Shown: in pieces, positions 188 to 8,411 of the stretch
Position numbering within the stretch: the first letter of the stretch is position 1
Layout: each line of letters opens with the position of its first letter
DNA from: a plasmid
DNA length: 8,411 nt
Strand: one strand, 5' to 3'
Sequence record: NZ_CP082907.1
Program-made: the position numbers and the translations under genes
The notes under the pieces: model-generated
What the model was told of the DNA's origin: nothing
Databases searched by the model: none
The model's input: only the letters and a program-made list of their open reading frames with translations

Positions 188-295
188 ACAGTTTTGGTTA
201 CTGCGCTCCGTTTAAGCCAGTTACCTTCGGAAGGAAGAGTTGGTAGCTCTAAATTCCGGCAAACGAACCACCGTTGGTAGCGGTGGTTTTTTTGT
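188..295 (+). ncRNA. RNAI: Antisense copy-number control RNA I (~108 nt).
   Basis: acagttttggttactgcgctccgtttaagccagttaccttcggaaggaagagttggtagctctaaattccggcaaacgaaccaccgttggtagcggtggttttttt parallels pMB1 RNA I. The terminator hairpin accaccgttggtagcggtgg is followed by T7 at 266-293. Confidence 0.8.
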
Positions 296-601: not shown

Positions 602-1720
602 ATGAGTTCGCTTTTTAGTCCGTTAAATCTTGGCGGTTTCAAACTAAGAAACCGTATTGCTCTACCGCCGCTGACTCGCTGCCGCAGCAATCAGCCAGGC
701 AACATTCCTGGTGATCTGATGGTTGAATACTATAGGCAACGTGCCAGTGCGGGTTTTATGATCACTGAAGGTACACAGATTGAGCCTCGAGGTCAGGGAT
801 ATGCCTGGACACCAGGAATCCATAGCGAAGCACAGATCGCAGGTTGGAAAAAAGTGACTGATGCCGTCCATCAGGAAAATGGGACAATTTTTTGCCAACT
901 CTGGCACGTCGGCCGTGTATCACATAATGCCCTTCAACCAGGAATGGCTCCCCCGGTTGCACCTTCGGCAATTACCGCAACCGGGGTAAGAGTATTTATT
1001 GAAACGGGTCCTGGAGAAGGCATTCTGACAGCACCCAGCGAACCACGGGAGCTCTCAACCCAAGAAGTGAAAGATATTGTAGAGCTTTATCGTGTCGCAG
1101 CGGAGAATGCGAAAAAGGCTGGTTTTGACGGTGTAGAACTACATTCAGCCAACGGATATCTGATAAACCAGTTTATTTCTGAACATACTAACTTCCGTAA
1201 AGATGAATATGGTGGCTCACTCGATAACCGACTGCGTTTCCTACGCGAAATAACCGAAGCTGTTAGTTCAGTATTTGGTAGCCATCGAGTTGGAGTACGC
1301 TTTGCCCCCTTATTTTCGAGCACAGATGAAGATAGAGTTTATCTTGGTCTTGTTGAAAAAGACCCTCATGATACTTATATACGTGCAGCAAAAATTCTGA
1401 ACGATCTCGGAGTAGGTTATCTTTCAATCGCCGAAGCTGACTGGGATAATAGCCCAGAGATGCCTGAAAGTTTCCGTGTTGCCCTACGTAAAACGTTCCA
1501 ATCTCCGATTATGTATTCTGGTCTTTATACTCAGGAAAAAGCTGAACGTATTTTAGAAAAAGGCCTGGGTGATTTGTTCGGTTTTGGACGTTCATTTATT
1601 GCTAACCCAGACCTCCCTGAGAGGTTCAAAGCCGGTTATCCATTAAATAGTACTGACAGATCCTCTCTATATGGTGGTACTGAGAAAGGATATACTGATT
1701 ATCCTGTTTATTATCCCTAA
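602..1720 (+). CDS. nemA: Old Yellow Enzyme family NADH:flavin oxidoreductase (N-ethylmaleimide reductase-like alkene reductase), 372 aa.
   Basis: The translation aligns along its full length with E. coli NemA as recalled from memory (LFSPLNLGGFKLRNRIALPPLTRCRS, YYRQRASAGFMITEGTQI, HSANGYLINQF, GFGRSFIANPDLPERF, GYTDYP). Stop TAA at 1718-1720. Confidence 0.9.
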   Translation: MSSLFSPLNLGGFKLRNRIALPPLTRCRSNQPGNIPGDLMVEYYRQRASAGFMITEGTQIEPRGQGYAWTPGIHSEAQIAGWKKVTDAVHQENGTIFCQLWHVGRVSHNALQPGMAPPVAPSAITATGVRVFIETGPGEGILTAPSEPRELSTQEVKDIVELYRVAAENAKKAGFDGVELHSANGYLINQFISEHTNFRKDEYGGSLDNRLRFLREITEAVSSVFGSHRVGVRFAPLFSSTDEDRVYLGLVEKDPHDTYIRAAKILNDLGVGYLSIAEADWDNSPEMPESFRVALRKTFQSPIMYSGLYTQEKAERILEKGLGDLFGFGRSFIANPDLPERFKAGYPLNSTDRSSLYGGTEKGYTDYPVYYP

Positions 1721-1734
1721 TTTTGTGAGGCAGC

Positions 1735-2049
1735 ATGTCACCGGAAAATGCCATTAAGTTACTAGGTAACCCTACTCGGGTTTCTATCCTAAAATGGCTG
1801 AAAAATCCAGAAGAGGAATTTGCTGATTATTCTCAGCTTTTTCCTTTCGAAAAATATGGTGTCTGTGCCAGTCTCATTCAGGACAAGGCGGGTTTATCAC
1901 AACCCGCAACCTCGCTATGCCTAAAAAGTTTGCATGATGCTGGACTACTTGAAGCGATAAAGGTGGGTAAATGGACTTATTACCGCCGCAGCGAATTTCG
2001 CATAAAAAAGATGACAGATGCTGTCATTATATCTCTACAGCAGTTATAA
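1735..2049 (+). CDS. ArsR/SmtB-family winged-helix transcriptional regulator (104 aa), probably co-transcribed with the OYE gene.
   Basis: LGNPTRVSILKWL...GLSQPATSLCLKSLHDAGLL fits the ArsR-family HTH. Only a partial CVC metal motif (GVCAS). RBS gagg at 1727-1730, 14 bp from the nemA stop. The terminator follows. Confidence 0.8.
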   Translation: MSPENAIKLLGNPTRVSILKWLKNPEEEFADYSQLFPFEKYGVCASLIQDKAGLSQPATSLCLKSLHDAGLLEAIKVGKWTYYRRSEFRIKKMTDAVIISLQQL

Positions 2050-2141: not shown

Positions 2142-2173
2142 AAAAAAAATCCCGCTATCGCGGGCTTTTTTTT
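2142..2173. terminator. Bidirectional rho-independent terminator.
   Basis: aaaaaaaat-cccgc-tatc-gcggg-cttttttttt: a 5-bp GC stem with an A-run on one side and a T-run on the other. It ends the ArsR-like gene on the plus strand and the 146-aa gene on the minus strand. Confidence 0.8.
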
Positions 2174-2612
2174 AGATGTTTACGGCTTTTTTGCAGTTTT
2201 TAAAGGTAGTTGCATGCATTTTGCCATAGTAATCCTGTCGGTCATCGTCCCATGCCCATGAAATGAGATAAGCATCTGATGAGCCACTAACAGTCCTGAT
2301 TCGACGAGTCAGACCTGACCATACTCCTGTCAGATCAGCAACATCCACTTCGAGTTCAGATGCGAGATCTTCACACCAGAAACCGTTTGAGCTGTCACTG
2401 TTTTCAAGGATAGCCTTCAGTACAGAACGTGATTTACTGCTCAGGCCTCGAACAAGCTTTTCCGCTTGGAGCGATGATAAATCGGTAGGGCCTTCACCGT
2501 TTTCTTCAAAAACATCCTCATCCACGCCCTCAGCAATAAGGGCTAGAACTTCGCTGCGTGCGCCAGCTGAAAGCTTTTGCAAATCGATCAATGACAAAAA
2601 AATTCCACTCAT
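2172..2612 (-). CDS. Acidic hypothetical protein, 146 aa. Start chosen at the second Met, which has the RBS GAGGAG; the ORF could extend to 2651.
   Basis: Minus strand reads aacGAGGAGaagtcagacATGagtggaatt. The ORF is intact, D/E rich (ENGEGPTDL, WAWDDDRQDYYG), and abuts the terminator. No family recognised. Confidence 0.65.
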   Translation of the reverse strand: MSGIFLSLIDLQKLSAGARSEVLALIAEGVDEDVFEENGEGPTDLSSLQAEKLVRGLSSKSRSVLKAILENSDSSNGFWCEDLASELEVDVADLTGVWSGLTRRIRTVSGSSDAYLISWAWDDDRQDYYGKMHATTFKNCKKAVNI

Positions 2613-2781
2613 GTCTGACTTCTCCTCGTTGATTTGAAGAAAGACTAACACAGACTAAGCGTTTGACGATACTTAAATGCATTAAACGATAAGGCAAACA
2701 TCTACTAAGCAAGGCTTATCTCAAATTATGCATTTTTGCTTTGATAATTTCTCTTAAGGTGAACATAAAACCCATCCCTGA

Positions 2782-3693: not shown

Positions 3694-3879
3694 TCAGGAT
3701 ACCGATTTTCTAGAAGGCCCTCTCCGGCTGATTTGGCCTCCTTTTCTCCCTGCTTCCTTTGCACGCTCCGGGTTGTTCTTGAAGTTACCTCCGCTTACGC
3801 GACCGCCTCGCTGTCCAACTTCTGCAGCCCGCTCCGGATTTTCGGCAAAATTGCTGGCACCACCACGACGTACTGACAT
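3694..3879 (-). CDS. yciG: YciG-like KGG-repeat general stress protein, 61 aa.
   Basis: MSVRRGGASNFAENPERAAEVGQRGGRVSGGNFKNNPERAKEAGRKGGQ is collinear with E. coli YciG as recalled from memory (GGSGNFAEDREKASDAGRKGGQHSGGNFKND...). RBS gggggt. Confidence 0.8.
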   Translation of the reverse strand: MSVRRGGASNFAENPERAAEVGQRGGRVSGGNFKNNPERAKEAGRKGGQISRRGPSRKSVS

Positions 3880-4120: not shown

Positions 4121-4435
4121 GTGAATAAAGAAGAATCCAAACGTACTCTCGGTAAACGGAACCAGCAGGAACCGTCACCTCTTAAGCCTGGTAAAGAACG
4201 ATCCGTTACTCAAGCGAAGCCAGGCACCCGCAGCCGGCGTTGTCGTACCGGATCCCCCCAGGCATATTTAACATAACAGTACTGTTAAGCATGCGGCTGT
4301 AGGCTAAGCGCTTATCTTAAAGATGCATCTGATAAATACCTTTTGTGCTCCTTCCCTGCCGGAGCGACAGTTTTAACGTATCCTGTAGGCTTCGCCTGCC
4401 GTACGGGTAGAGCTTTCACAGCAAGAAGGTCACGC

Positions 4436-4675
4436 ATGTACAGAAACGAAGACGAAAAGCTGTCTGACATAATAATGGGCGAAGCCGTCCTCGAGCTGCT
4501 AGATGAAATTGCGCCTGTCACAACCAGCTCGCTGCTACTCAAGTTGCAGGCTTTCCTGCTCAGGGAAGAAAACGCAAACAAAGAAAAAGCTATCCGTCAC
4601 GCCATTGACGAGGTGAAAGCGGCAACTGAGCGGTACAGCAGCGCCACCCTGGTAGATGCGGCGATAAGGCACTGA
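4436..4675 (+). CDS. Hypothetical helical protein, 79 aa. Start at the internal Met with RBS gaagg; the ORF could begin at 4343.
   Basis: gcaagaaggtcacgcATG. MYRNEDEKLSDIIMGEAVLELLDEIAPV...; the ORF ends 35 bp before the cer-like core. No family recognised. Confidence 0.45.
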   Translation: MYRNEDEKLSDIIMGEAVLELLDEIAPVTTSSLLLKLQAFLLREENANKEKAIRHAIDEVKAATERYSSATLVDAAIRH

Positions 4676-4709
4676 TGCAGTTTCCTGATCACCTTTGCCA
4701 GCCGCTCGG

Positions 4710-4737
4710 ATTTACCATAACATCCCTTGGGCGCACC
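4710..4737 (-). other. cer: cer/psi-like XerCD site-specific recombination core (plasmid multimer resolution site).
   Basis: The reverse complement reads GGTGCGCCCAA-GGGATG-TTATGGTAAAT, against ColE1 cer GGTGCGTACAA-TTAAGGGA-TTATGGTAAAT as recalled from memory. The XerD arm is identical and the XerC arm matches at 9 of 11. Confidence 0.7.
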
Positions 4738-4940
4738 CCTGCAGAGCCCCTCAGCGCGATTCTGCCGCGTCCGGGCCAGAATCCAGCCCTTTCCCTGCCC
4801 GGAACCGCGAAAATCCGCCCTGATAATTTCTGACCGGCTGCATGGCTATGCACGCAGGTGAATAGCGGGCGGTTTCACGCGTATGTTGTCACTAAGCCCC
4901 GTTTTCCGGCGCTTAACTCCTCTGATAACGGTGAACGGGC
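4738..4940 (-). other. Probable cer accessory sequences (PepA/ArgR side), including an ARG-box-like palindrome at 4838-4854.
   Basis: GC-rich non-coding sequence on the XerC side of the core. cTGCATggctATGCAcg resembles the ARG-box half sites TGAAT/ATTCA, ~110 bp from the core, roughly where the ARG box sits in cer as recalled from memory. Confidence 0.4.
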
Positions 4941-5055
4941 GCGCAGTTTACTGTGCGGCCGTGAGGCGTTGGCCAAGCCGCCAGGCGCGGCAGAAAACAG
5001 ATGGTGCCATTCGCTACCACTTTGCGAATCCTGCCCTCCGTCTGAATCGCAGAAA

Positions 5056-5075
5056 AATTTTGTACGTACGAAATT
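5056..5075. promoter_or_regulatory. 20-bp near-perfect palindrome AATTTTGTACGTACGAAATT (18 of 20), an AT-rich island in GC-rich spacer ~190 bp upstream of the 213-aa gene; candidate operator.
   Basis: Palindrome checked base by base against its reverse complement; two symmetric mismatches. Confidence 0.3.
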
Positions 5076-5264
5076 CAGGGTATTGGGCTGTGCCTGAGCG
5101 GCTGGCTTCTGGTACGCCAGCTCCTTACGCTGGCAGGGGACTGAATGACAAAATCAGATCCGTTTAAAACGATAATCCGGACGCTTTAAAGATAAGTTTT
5201 CGTTTACGAAAAGTGGCTCTGCCTGATATTTTTCAGACTGGTATAACAGACGGTAAGAGAATTA

Positions 5265-5906
5265 ATGGACGCAAAAACACTCGCCGTATCGGTTGCTGAT
5301 GGTATTGCTTCACTTCCGATGGATTTTTACCTGGGTATTGAACGAACCTTTCAGGATCTCAGCCTGTCAGATGGCGGCAGAAACATTCAGCGTCGTAACT
5401 TCGGTGATGATGAGAGGATGTACCGCGCTTTAAATAAGCTCTTCCGTAACAGAGCCATTCTGGGGCAGGTCGCGGAGATGATAATCAAAGACGCTTTATC
5501 ATATCTTCCGGATCCTGCCCTGAAAAAAATCACAGATAAACTCATCGGAGCAGCGACTTCACTGGGTTCAAGACAGTCAATGCAGCTGGCCATTACAGGT
5601 TATCTTGGCTCAAAAGTTGTTGGCGGAATGATGGCCAGCACAATAACGAAGTTATCACTGAGATTATGGACAGGCTCCCTTGTGGGCGGCATCGTTTTAC
5701 AGGGGGTGCTTTCGCGTGCTTCTGCAGCTTCCCGGCGTTTAAGGCATAAAAACCCCGAATTATGGTCAAAGCTTTATATCCTTGATTTTGATATGCTTTA
5801 CTTCCTCTTTGAAGAACCTTTAGCTAATTACATCGAGCTTGGTGAGACTCTTCGTAAAAACCCTTTGAAAACGGAGCAATTTCTGGGTGCAATCGAGAAT
5901 CTTTAG
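5265..5906 (+). CDS. Hypothetical 213-aa protein whose central segment is small-residue-rich, amphipathic and glycine-zipper-like; candidate membrane-active toxin or effector.
   Basis: A TGgTATAAC extended -10 at 5239-5247 and aagaga four nucleotides before the ATG. AITGYLGSKVVGGMMASTITKLSLRLWTGSLVGGIVLQG carries GxxxG-type repeats. Lower GC than the flanks. No family recognised. Confidence 0.6.
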   Translation: MDAKTLAVSVADGIASLPMDFYLGIERTFQDLSLSDGGRNIQRRNFGDDERMYRALNKLFRNRAILGQVAEMIIKDALSYLPDPALKKITDKLIGAATSLGSRQSMQLAITGYLGSKVVGGMMASTITKLSLRLWTGSLVGGIVLQGVLSRASAASRRLRHKNPELWSKLYILDFDMLYFLFEEPLANYIELGETLRKNPLKTEQFLGAIENL

Positions 5907-6096
5907 ACTAATCAGAAAAGTCGTTTCTGAGTTATCCGGGGCGGTGGTTATCAGCGCCGTAGTTATAGGAATTTTCATCGCAATTTTTGCGAATGAAGGG
6001 ATTATGCGCGTTATCGCTCCCGTTCTCGTCTTTATCGCAGGCCTGGTTCTTTACTGGTTAGCCTGGATGATTTCATCAAAAGAAGATCGGAAATAG
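5887..6096 (+). CDS. Small two-TM membrane protein, 69 aa, overlapping the end of the 213-aa gene by 20 nt (GTG start); candidate immunity or partner protein.
   Basis: ggag lies 9 nt before the GTG. Two hydrophobic helices (GAVVISAVVIGIFIAIFA; VIAPVLVFIAGLVLYWLAWMI) with basic termini. Confidence 0.5.
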   Translation: MQSRIFRLIRKVVSELSGAVVISAVVIGIFIAIFANEGIMRVIAPVLVFIAGLVLYWLAWMISSKEDRK

Positions 6097-6130
6097 GCAA
6101 CTCAAAAAAGCATTACTGTGGGCAACATTG

Positions 6131-6364
6131 TCACCGTATGGGCGTCAAAGGCTGCAGTGACAGTAATCCCTGTAAAGACAGGTCCTCATTCAGTTCACTC
6201 CAGTGAATGCCGCGCGGACTCAGCTCAAAACTTGCCAGCTGTTCAGCGCTGGCATTCTGCAGCGCAGGAAAGTACGTCAGAGGCACGCCCAGCACGCGAC
6301 CATCGCTCAGCTGCAGCCACATGTTGTAGGGATCAAATTTTGCCGATTTGATGGATACGCTCAT
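6131..6364 (-). CDS. DUF2442-family protein, 77 aa.
   Basis: MSVSIKSAKFDPYNMWLQLSDGRVLGVPLTYFPALQNASAEQLASFELSPRGIHWSELNEDLSLQGLL matches the DUF2442 pattern (DGR..PL..FP.L..A..EQ......G.GIHWP.LDEDLS..GLL). The minus strand reads ccGGAGGtcgtgATG. Confidence 0.75.
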   Translation of the reverse strand: MSVSIKSAKFDPYNMWLQLSDGRVLGVPLTYFPALQNASAEQLASFELSPRGIHWSELNEDLSLQGLLSLQPLTPIR

Positions 6365-6594
6365 CACGACCTCCGGTTGACCGTCACGAATTTACGTTGA
6401 TAGTATGCCCGGGTAGTCCTGTCGTCCATGACGACCACCAATGATCCCACGGCCTGAGAGGATCGCCTTCGGGTGGCTGTACAGAACACTCCCGCAGCCT
6501 GAAAGGGAGAACGCAAAGCGTGGTACATCTGCCCGCCCCTGGAAGCAGATATCGTCACAAACAGCGCACCTACGACGCGACGATGAGGGTACAT
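6364..6594 (-). CDS. Hypothetical ORF of 76 aa whose stop overlaps the DUF2442 start codon (TGATG); an alternative start at 6528 gives 54 aa after an AGGGG RBS. It does not look like DUF4160, the usual DUF2442 partner.
   Basis: The frame stays open up to a one-nucleotide stop/start overlap with the downstream gene. Basic and Arg-rich (TATRRRSSQAV...YYQRKFVTVNRRS). The sequence region is GC rich, so a chance ORF is possible. Confidence 0.35.
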   Translation of the reverse strand: MYPHRRVVGALFVTISASRGGQMYHALRSPFQAAGVFCTATRRRSSQAVGSLVVVMDDRTTRAYYQRKFVTVNRRS

Positions 6595-7160
6595 TTCACA
6601 ATGCAGTGACCGGCACCGACCGTCCTGTCATCCGCTGCCGGCAGTCATAACCACGACAGCCCGCTACACCCTGCGATCACCATTACGTCTTCCGGAAAGC
6701 ACCTGTTTGCAGAGGCAAACGCGCCTCCGGACTGAACGGCGTCACTTTGGTTCGAGTGAAACGAGAACAAAGTGACGCGTGAAAAAACCACGCTGCAGCC
6801 CCTGCGGTACAACGCCTGACAGCGATTTCCACAATCTGACGTGCACGTATTACGTGTTTTCATGCGCCCTGAACGGGCTTTTAACCACAACGCTGCCGGC
6901 GCGACCGCAGGCAGGTTTCATTAAGAAAGGAAAAAGAACGGCTCGGTATCGATGGCGACACCAGGAGACTGGTGTGTGGAGGGAGTCTGACGCAAGTCAG
7001 CCCGGCGTAAGCCGCGAACAGGTCAGCGACCTGGGGAAACCTCGCAAGAACTCAACAATTCGTCACCCCGATGCACAGATACCAGCCGGGACGCAGGAAG
7101 CGCAAAAGCAACCGCGCCGTCGGGGCCAGAATTACCGGAAAAGCAGGTGCTGTCAGCCGG

Positions 7161-7562
7161 CTATTTCCAGAACTGCCACCATTTGCCAGCAGGCAAAACG
7201 GGCAGTGCTGTCTCTTTTTTATGTTCGAGGAGATGCAGGGACTGCTTAAGGCTGTCGATATGCGACTCCTGAGCAGAAACCAGTGTACGGAGGTGTTCAA
7301 CTTCCTGTTTCAGGCTATGAACGAGTTGTTCATTAGCTGTATAAGACACTGTAACACGCTGTCCAGATACTTGTTCTTCTGGCTGTTCAACCGTAGTTGA
7401 AGAGATATCGCCGAAAACACGAATAAGCTCTGATATGTCTATCATTTTTGAGTTGCGTACACCTGCGCAGGTAGACAGTTCACCTGTTTTTATAAGCCTG
7501 TGCAGCGTTGTCCTGCTTTTACCTGTAAGCCTGGCGGCCTCACTGATAGATACTTTCGCCAT
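7161..7562 (-). CDS. HTH_17/excisionase-like DNA-binding protein with a C-terminal coiled coil, 133 aa.
   Basis: MAKVSISEAARLTGKSRTTLHRLIKTGEL fits the Xis/MerR-like HTH_17 pattern. EQLVHSLKQEVEHLRTLVSAQESHIDSLKQSLHLLEHKKE is a heptad-like helix. Starts 10 nt after the rop stop. Confidence 0.65.
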   Translation of the reverse strand: MAKVSISEAARLTGKSRTTLHRLIKTGELSTCAGVRNSKMIDISELIRVFGDISSTTVEQPEEQVSGQRVTVSYTANEQLVHSLKQEVEHLRTLVSAQESHIDSLKQSLHLLEHKKETALPVLPAGKWWQFWK

Positions 7563-7572
7563 GCGGATACCG

Positions 7573-7752
7573 TTATTCCTGATTTAACTTTGCCAGAAGG
7601 CAGGCATGAAGGCGCTCGGCATCCTCATGAAGCCGTTCGCACATGTCCGCTTCCGTATCCAGGTCCAGCTCGTTGAGCTTCTCCAGCAGAAGCAGGCTTT
7701 GCCCCTGAATGAATTTTGCCATGTTCAGCGCAGTTTTTTGCTGTTTCGTCAT
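7573..7752 (-). CDS. rop: Rop/Rom RNA I-RNA II kissing-complex modulator protein, 59 aa.
   Basis: MTKQQKTALNMAKFIQGQSLLLLEKLNELDLDTEADMCERLHEDAERLHACLLAKL against pMB1 Rop as recalled from memory, MTKQEKTALNMARFIRSQTLTLLEKLNELDADEQADICESLHDHADELYRSCLARF. DNA-level homology is also evident. RBS ggag. Confidence 0.9.
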   Translation of the reverse strand: MTKQQKTALNMAKFIQGQSLLLLEKLNELDLDTEADMCERLHEDAERLHACLLAKLNQE

Positions 7753-8175: not shown

Positions 8176-8411
8176 GCCCTCCTGACGAGCATCACAGAAA
8201 TCTGCCGATTCCCGGTGCTCAAATCAGAAGGGGCGAAACCCGACAGGACTTAAAGATACCGGACGTTTCCATCCGGTGGCTCCCTCGTGCGCTCTCCTGT
8301 TCCCACCTTACAGCTTAGCCCGTGTCTTTCCGCTGTTATGGCCGCGTTTTCTCATACCACGCCTGACACTGGGTGCTGCTTAGGTGGTTCGCTCCAAGCT
8401 GGACTATATGC
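8163..8411 (-). ncRNA. RNAII: RNA II 3' portion, ending at the RNA-DNA transition (ori).
   Basis: 8161-8411 aligns with pMB1 tttttccataggctccgcccccctgacgagc...gttcgctccaagctgg. The total length from ~300 to ~8163 around the circle is ~550 nt, matching the ~555-nt ColE1 primer. Confidence 0.7.

Follow-up and report, generated by a model that had tools for sequence, protein, structure and literature searches.

The stretch of DNA analysed here, i.e., the whole of the 8,411 nucleotides of sequence record NZ_CP082907.1 (referred to below as the window), is a complete circular plasmid of the ColE1 type, whose homology to the Kosakonia cowanii plasmid L039 is continuous across the junction between positions 8411 and 1. 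This replicon is small, multicopy, and non-mobilizable, and has neither a partition system nor a classical toxin-antitoxin system. A contig of 2.1 kb with 98.8% identity (L031) is present in sample ERR11042535. On its plus strand, two overlapping genes are found, which share a stretch of 20 nt and encode proteins of 213 and 69 amino acids (Table 1), exactly as described in the initial annotation.

Both ORFs are real genes under purifying selection. For the large ORF, dN/dS values of 0.07-0.13 were obtained in four comparisons with the orthologues from Pantoea and Brenneria, and for the small ORF, the three comparisons with orthologues from the same genera gave values of 0.11-0.15, with dS being saturated in the case of Brenneria. 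In the region of the small ORF, the remaining reading frames are closed.

The signals of expression found around the genes are of unequal quality. A GGAG motif, located 10 nt 5' of the GTG start codon, probably serves as the Shine-Dalgarno sequence of the small ORF. The large ORF is preceded by a possible extended -10 element and a weak candidate Shine-Dalgarno sequence, and this stretch (5239..5259), which falls inside the DNA co-inherited with the two genes, may tentatively be taken to contain its promoter and Shine-Dalgarno signals. The scans with consensus models returned no plus-strand promoter in positions 4900-6400 and no terminator around the cassette.

Table 1. Features of the 8,411-nt window that are discussed in the text, with their coordinates and strands.
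Feature	Coordinates	Strand	Basis or remark
Ssp6-family effector gene, putatively pore-forming	5265..5906	+	ATG start, 213 aa; homology, dN/dS
Sip6-like candidate immunity gene	5887..6096	+	GTG start, 69 aa; two TM helices, layout
GGAG, candidate Shine-Dalgarno sequence of the small ORF, within the end of the large ORF	5873..5876	+	Sequence inspection
TGgTATAAC, possible extended -10 element of the large ORF	5239-5247	+	Sequence inspection
AAGAG, weak candidate Shine-Dalgarno sequence of the large ORF	5255-5259	+	Sequence inspection
Effector/immunity cassette of about 1.0 kb	about 5117..6118	.	blastn borders
RNAI	189-295	+	ColE1-type replicon
Old-Yellow-Enzyme-type oxidoreductase and small ArsR-like HTH protein	602-2049	+	372 aa, PF00724, E=6e-81 (oxidoreductase)
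ORF with no Pfam family	2172-2651	-	159 aa
KGG-repeat stress-protein ORF	3694-3879	-	61 aa, PF10685, E=1e-11
ORF with no Pfam family	4343-4675	+	110 aa
DUF2442 gene	6131-6367	-	Right flank of the cassette
STAXI RNA	6420-6569	+	Rfam, 75.4 bits, above the gathering score
EFASI RNA	6938-7088	+	Rfam, 90.5 bits, above the gathering score
Rop	7573-7752	-	ColE1-type replicon

The cassette and its flanks

The pair is lower in GC than its flanks, as had been pointed out from the start, with a content of 0.43-0.47 over positions 5250-6150, in comparison with 0.56-0.58 over 4500-5100 and 0.54-0.59 over 6150-7200. The suggestion that it constitutes an acquired cassette is borne out by the DNA comparisons. 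In the blastn searches, the similarity to the chromosomal and megaplasmid loci of Pantoea (L005, L006, L007, L009, and L032-37; 87-94% identity) is restricted to a segment that begins at approximately 5117, 5150, or 5194 and ends at 6107 or 6118. The homology of the backbone to the small plasmids L038-L040, in turn, stops at 5097 and restarts at 6161-6200, positions whose equivalents in the Cronobacter plasmid pA84-3 are only about 180 bp apart. Given both the limits of the Pantoea match and the gap in the backbone homology, the pair represents an insertion of approximately 1.0 kb, and, as the match already begins at around position 5117, this insertion brought with it some 150 bp of its own upstream DNA. 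The search for repeats at the borders of the cassette returned only short pairs at the level expected by chance.

The GC-rich flanks had also been considered to be non-coding, which does not hold for the right flank, where a DUF2442 gene and two Rfam RNA motifs are located. These motifs, STAXI and EFASI, are part of the conserved backbone, in which they lie between the DUF2442 and HTH_17 genes.

Assignment of the two proteins

Given that neither protein is covered by a model in Pfam, NCBIfam, or PADLOC, the pair looked like an orphan. The Pfam and NCBIfam scans of both proteins returned nothing above the cut-off, with no match to a glycine-zipper family in Pfam, and PADLOC retrieved 0 families and no defence or toxin-antitoxin component for either of them, while all the database homologues of the pair are named “hypothetical protein”. 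A role in phage defence, which had been raised as one of the possibilities, found nothing in its support, either in PADLOC or in the tblastn search against 50,697 phage genomes, which gave no match. In PHROGs, a single match was obtained (phrog_26461, E=4.6e-8), the function of which is unknown, and the holin family PF04550 appeared only below the threshold (E=0.12, 13.2 bits, for a cut-off of 25).

The size and the layout of the pair led to the consideration of Ssp6 of Serratia marcescens, the product of a 648-bp gene, which is a T6SS-secreted protein that opens cation-selective pores and causes the depolarisation of its target cells (Mariano et al. 2019, Nat Commun 10:5484; PMC6889166). Its partner, Sip6, is encoded by a 204-bp ORF that overlaps ssp6 by 4 nt, and has two predicted TM helices (PMC6889166). 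The scan of the genome contigs returned no Serratia Ssp6 locus, and the Ssp6 orthologues P0332 and P0333 were reached via P0225. The published primers for strain Db10 imply the termini MAKG...EKVSK for Ssp6 and ...KFHDGV for Sip6. P0332 and P0333 fit the termini implied for Ssp6, and six published Db10 primers could be placed in their loci, L029 and L030, with 0-1 mismatch. In these loci, the overlapping 204-bp ORF ends in KFHDGV.

When compared with P0333 by BLASTP, the window protein aligns over 192 aa with 28% identity (E=8e-14). The alignment of the clade of the window protein (A2) was matched by hhalign to that of the clade of Ssp6 proper (A3) with a probability of 99.8% (E=1.2e-28, 183 columns), with the motifs SRxxxASRxL, NPE(L/I)(W/Y), and D(M/L)LYFL(F/V)E being common to both clades.

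The published family itself, which was delimited by a HMMER search, includes relatives of this type. For example, the Ssp6 homologue of Cronobacter sakazakii (NZ_CP012254.1, 69047-69682) in Supplementary Data 1 of Mariano et al. 2019 (PMC6889166) is the gene recovered here as the tblastn match H43 (69107-69682, 33% identity, E=9e-19). The same list has a 642-bp gene of Pantoea vagans C9-1 (PMC6889166), which presumably corresponds, on the grounds of size and species only, to P0015, a 213-aa P. vagans protein that is 59% identical to the window protein. It also has 636-bp genes from the UMH strains of S. marcescens (PMC6889166), with which P0104 may be compared. Both P0104 and P0117 were rejected as candidates for Ssp6 itself, as they match the weak-scoring Serratia homologues and not the 648-bp ssp6. 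The window protein sits in the weak-scoring part of the published family, with HMMER scores of approximately 45-65.

These comparisons of sequences place the 213-aa protein clearly, if distantly, within the Ssp6 family, and the pair is a new and divergent representative, carried by a plasmid, of the Ssp6/Sip6 family, which had already been described. The initial view of an undescribed module with no recognisable family must thus be abandoned, given the homology of the large protein to a T6SS effector that was characterised in 2019. In both the window and S. marcescens Db10, the effectors are homologous and of almost the same length (213 vs. 215 aa), and consist of helices only, two of which form a moderately hydrophobic hairpin at the centre, with the C-terminal SRxxxASRxL, NPE, and DxLYFLxE motifs in common, while a small two-TM partner overlaps the 3' end of the effector gene. 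The orphan location is also shared, as ssp6 of Db10 lies away from the T6SS genes (PMC6889166). On the other hand, at 28% identity, the window protein belongs to a distant sub-clade, together with proteins from Pantoea, Brenneria, and Ewingella, the genes overlap by 20 nt (4 nt in Db10), the partner has no sequence similarity to Sip6, and the pair is located on a ColE1-type plasmid of 8.4 kb, whereas that of Db10 is chromosomal.

The glycine zipper that had been attributed to the large protein stands only in part. The segments GYLGSKVVGG and GSLVGGIVLQG are indeed present, and residues 95-150 include 10 G, 8 S, 5 T, and 4 A, with 10 small-xxx-small spacings, although a strict GxxxG is found only once. 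The glycines of the zipper are kept only within the close Pantoea clade, and G147 is the sole invariant position of this region in the wider Ssp6-like family, which makes the zipper a local trait of the Pantoea clade rather than a hallmark of the family. Strongly hydrophobic segments are absent from the protein, in which the G/S/T/A-rich stretch at approximately 95-150 is moderately hydrophobic. At its N-terminus (MDAKTLAVSVADG), residue 2 is acidic, and a hydrophobic core is lacking, as judged only by inspection of the Kyte-Doolittle values. Its 213 aa fall within the range of approximately 205-245 aa found in the stand-alone proteins of the Ssp6 family. In the AF2 model, which consists entirely of helices, H103-135 and H138-162 form a long hairpin (pLDDT 71.5, which is moderate), and the search for structural neighbours with this model found none, and no solved relative. 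Given the moderate confidence of the model and the lack of a structural neighbour, it is from the homology, and not from the structure, that a pore mechanism is proposed.

In the 69-aa protein, the hydropathy profile confirmed the two membrane helices that had been noticed earlier, at approximately 16-38 and 42-61. This protein follows the same plan as Sip6, in which a short N-terminus of basic character precedes TM1, a short acidic turn connects TM1 to TM2, and the tail is charged. The layout is also that of Sip6, with a length of about 67-75 aa, a pair of TM helices, and an overlap with the end of the effector gene. The comparison of the two sequences found no similarity (E=1.5), and divergence of the immunity proteins is common among the Ssp6 homologues, according to Mariano et al. 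2019 (PMC6889166). These authors found a small ORF 3' of every Ssp6 homologue (PMC6889166), and in the loci examined here, a two-helix partner of 69-80 aa, in an overlapping frame, is located 3' of every intact effector homologue. The homology to Ssp6 and the ssp6-sip6 layout support the operon-like pairing of a membrane-acting toxin with a two-helix membrane immunity protein that had been proposed originally.

The pair is similar in concept to the pore-forming colicins (E1, A, and Ia), in which a helical toxin with a hydrophobic hairpin depolarises the inner membrane and is accompanied by a small helical membrane immunity protein, often on plasmids of the ColE1 type. A released bacteriocin of the colicin or microcin type, together with its immunity protein, would be in keeping with a ColE1-type replicon (RNAI and Rop), as such pairs are typical of small ColE1 plasmids, and with an apparently membrane-acting toxin that is paired with a small membrane immunity protein. 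This explanation is highly improbable, however, given that the usual colicin signatures are absent, as had been recognised previously. There was no match at E<=1 to the colicin pore-forming, translocation, or receptor domains of Pfam, no lysis gene or third small lipoprotein ORF in the cassette according to the ORF list, and no LexA box upstream of position 5265, whereas the toxin is a protein of 213 aa, with no export signal evident on inspection, that is homologous to a contact-dependent T6SS effector. The Ssp6 homology and the ssp6-sip6 layout set the pair apart from the released colicin-like bacteriocins.

Distribution, carrier fusions, and decay of the effector

The homologues of the 213-aa protein formed 55 clusters when the search was based on the single sequence and 114 when it was based on a profile, while the full HMMER search with the A2 profile yielded 411 clusters at 50% identity. 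In the tblastn and protein searches, homologues were found in Pantoea, Brenneria, Ewingella, Serratia, Cronobacter, Klebsiella aerogenes, Salmonella, and Enterobacter, among others. Pantoea genomes contain at least three divergent Ssp6-like clades (the P0025, P0087, and P0344 types) in addition to that of the window. A 2,014-bp contig of Vagococcus sp. WN89Y (L020) also contains an Ssp6-like pair of the enterobacterial type, which is closely related to the Cronobacter/Klebsiella clade, although its presence in the assembly of a Firmicute is probably due to contamination rather than real carriage.

Many of the matches to the A2 profile are longer proteins, in which the Ssp6-like domain is C-terminal, and 20 of these proteins were covered by the Pfam scans. 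In P0201, the domain is found at the C-terminus of a VgrG (Phage_GPD and DUF2345), and in P0208, at that of a VgrG-PAAR (Phage_GPD, Phage_base_V, and PAAR), while eCIS_core (formerly DUF4157) lies upstream of the Ssp6-like domain in at least 11 of the 20 proteins, and some of the fusions also carry LysM or PG_binding_1. Further examples from outside the window include P0174, P0184, P0154, P0137, and P0146, among others. The fusions with VgrG, VgrG-PAAR, and eCIS_core identify the Ssp6-like domain as a toxic cargo of contractile injection systems, and the domain is, on the evidence of these architectures, a polymorphic-toxin module. The Ssp6 family was found only in Enterobacteriaceae by Mariano et al. 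2019 (PMC6889166), and the 411 clusters, together with the carrier fusions, point to a domain that is far more widely spread than in that description. The term Ssp6 is absent from the eCIS papers found by the literature search.

As most of the multidomain relatives contain eCIS_core and not VgrG, the module might use a route other than the T6SS, either as the cargo of an eCIS or a tailocin, or by acting inside the cell as a toxin-antitoxin, abortive-infection, or holin-like depolarising module. Its presence on plasmids, including a Cronobacter plasmid rich in phage genes, and beside P2-like prophages could be understood in this way, as could the match to phrog_26461 and the sub-threshold similarity to the holin family. 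A route of this kind is nevertheless distinctly unlikely for the window protein, which stands alone, with no eCIS_core domain, and for which PADLOC and the phage genomes gave nothing. In addition, the module stays at the same loci with or without the prophage (L026/L028 vs. L025), and the enterobacterial stand-alone homologues that have been tested are T6SS substrates (PMC6889166, and the available part of bioRxiv 10.64898/2026.08.01.741415). Given that Ssp6 is only mildly toxic from the cytoplasm (PMC6889166), a classical toxin-antitoxin function would also be a poor fit.

The neighbourhoods of the pair are unrelated to one another, and the pair recurs as a unit in many settings. It is found beside the repA gene of a plasmid, in a Cronobacter plasmid with many phage-type genes, between metabolic genes in the Pantoea megaplasmids, and at the mug-rpoD-dnaG hotspot of Serratia and Pantoea, with or without an adjoining P2-like prophage. 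At the latter site (L002, L025-L028, and L046-L050), the Ssp6-like pair is located in a variable region adjoining mug(UDG)-rpoD-dnaG in Serratia marcescens and Pantoea spp., where a P2-like prophage is inserted alongside in some strains, and a reverse-transcriptase gene in one case. This region appears to be an integration hotspot common to Serratia and Pantoea. The ORFs of the 8.4-kb plasmid include no T6SS gene, and none was found in the 10 kb on either side of the stand-alone relatives examined, which belong to the window clade and the neighbouring sub-clades.

A similar picture has been reported for Pantoea agglomerans, in which orphan effector/immunity pairs occupy variable hotspots on the chromosome, on megaplasmids, and on a plasmid, sometimes near prophages, according to the part of the preprint that is available (bioRxiv 10.64898/2026.08.01.741415). 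The same part describes the T6SS1-dependent secretion of Pse11a and Pse11b, two Ssp6 homologues, in P. agglomerans pv. betae (bioRxiv 10.64898/2026.08.01.741415). As far as this source goes, the settings of the Pse11a/b/c-Psi11 orphan pairs match the contexts observed here for the homologues of the window pair, and these Ssp6 homologues come from the genus of the closest relatives of the window protein, a likeness that applies at the level of the family. In the available text of the preprint, the terms “small plasmid” and “ColE1” have 0 occurrences each (bioRxiv 10.64898/2026.08.01.741415).

In L007 (10001-10842), L009 (10001-10833), L018 (10001-10833), and L019 (10001-10388), the effector gene is frameshifted or truncated, while the two-TM partner is intact. 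This pattern is typical of toxin/immunity pairs, and it looks like the decay of the toxin with the retention of the immunity gene, i.e., orphan immunity. The same loci lend some weight to a further explanation, in which the pair is kept mainly for the stabilisation of the plasmid or for defensive immunity, with the effector being poorly expressed or “silent”, and the gain consisting of resistance to the Ssp6-like toxins of neighbours, and possibly the kin killing of plasmid-free segregants. A precedent is found in Serratia, where SMDB11_0810, an Ssp6 paralogue, is “silent”, and the homologue pair SMDB11_0810/0809 is not expressed, its immunity protein being functional (PMC6889166). Orphan immunity genes are also common in the Pantoea hotspots, according to the available part of the preprint (bioRxiv 10.64898/2026.08.01.741415), and the scan provided no convincing promoter. 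However, the window has an intact effector gene, which purifying selection constrains as strongly as the immunity gene, and the co-inherited upstream DNA, of some 150 bp, suggests that a promoter has been retained, so that maintenance mainly for immunity or stabilisation seems rather improbable.

Proposed mode of action and role on the plasmid

The cassette is probably an antibacterial effector/immunity pair of the Ssp6/Sip6 type, composed of a pore former delivered by the T6SS and its protective partner. By analogy with the characterised homologue, the effector would be delivered through the T6SS of the plasmid's host and form pores, and the small protein would confer protection. In the case of delivery, the proposal is also based, indirectly, on the VgrG and VgrG-PAAR fusions and on the homologues of P. 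agglomerans secreted by T6SS1. The 213-aa protein, in which inspection reveals no signal peptide, would be a soluble cargo effector composed entirely of helices, which would most likely be loaded onto the type VI secretion apparatus of the host and injected into Gram-negative neighbours. Once there, the small-residue-rich, moderately hydrophobic hairpin (at approximately 103-162) would enter the inner membrane from its periplasmic face, and the inserted effector would oligomerise into an ion-selective pore, resulting in depolarisation and the arrest of growth. The translationally coupled 69-aa membrane protein, in turn, would bind the incoming toxin and shield both the producer and its plasmid-bearing kin. 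An ion-selective pore of this kind, with depolarisation in the absence of lysis, would be shared with Tse4, VasX, Tme, and the Tke5/BTH_I2691 family, which are unrelated to Ssp6 in sequence (PMC6889166).

As the loss of the plasmid would also mean the loss of immunity, the pair may contribute to the stability of the plasmid. A more elaborate scenario, in which the ColE1-type plasmid uses the chromosomal T6SS as a form of social addiction, with plasmid-free siblings being injected, the plasmid stabilised, and the host armed at a high gene dosage, is conceivable but doubtful.

With the assignment to the Ssp6/Sip6 family, a pair that was merely “hypothetical” can now be annotated as an Ssp6-like effector and a Sip6-like immunity protein, and a small plasmid of the ColE1 type joins the known carriers of orphan T6SS effector/immunity pairs. 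Carriage by such a plasmid bears on how orphan T6SS weapons spread, and might help to stabilise plasmids.

Finally, the related small plasmids have a common backbone of Rop, HTH_17, and DUF2442, with differing cargo, such as RelE/ParE, DUF262, and SIR2. In the window, a second cargo module is formed by the gene of an Old-Yellow-Enzyme-type NADH:flavin oxidoreductase, followed by that of a small ArsR-like HTH protein, which together show approximately 77% DNA identity to an “alkene reductase plus HTH regulator” pair on a 250-kb plasmid of Chimaeribacter arupi. The plasmid also contains a KGG-repeat stress-protein ORF and two ORFs with no Pfam family, of which the region of the 159-aa ORF has 80% DNA identity to a hypothetical gene of Cronobacter pA84-3.
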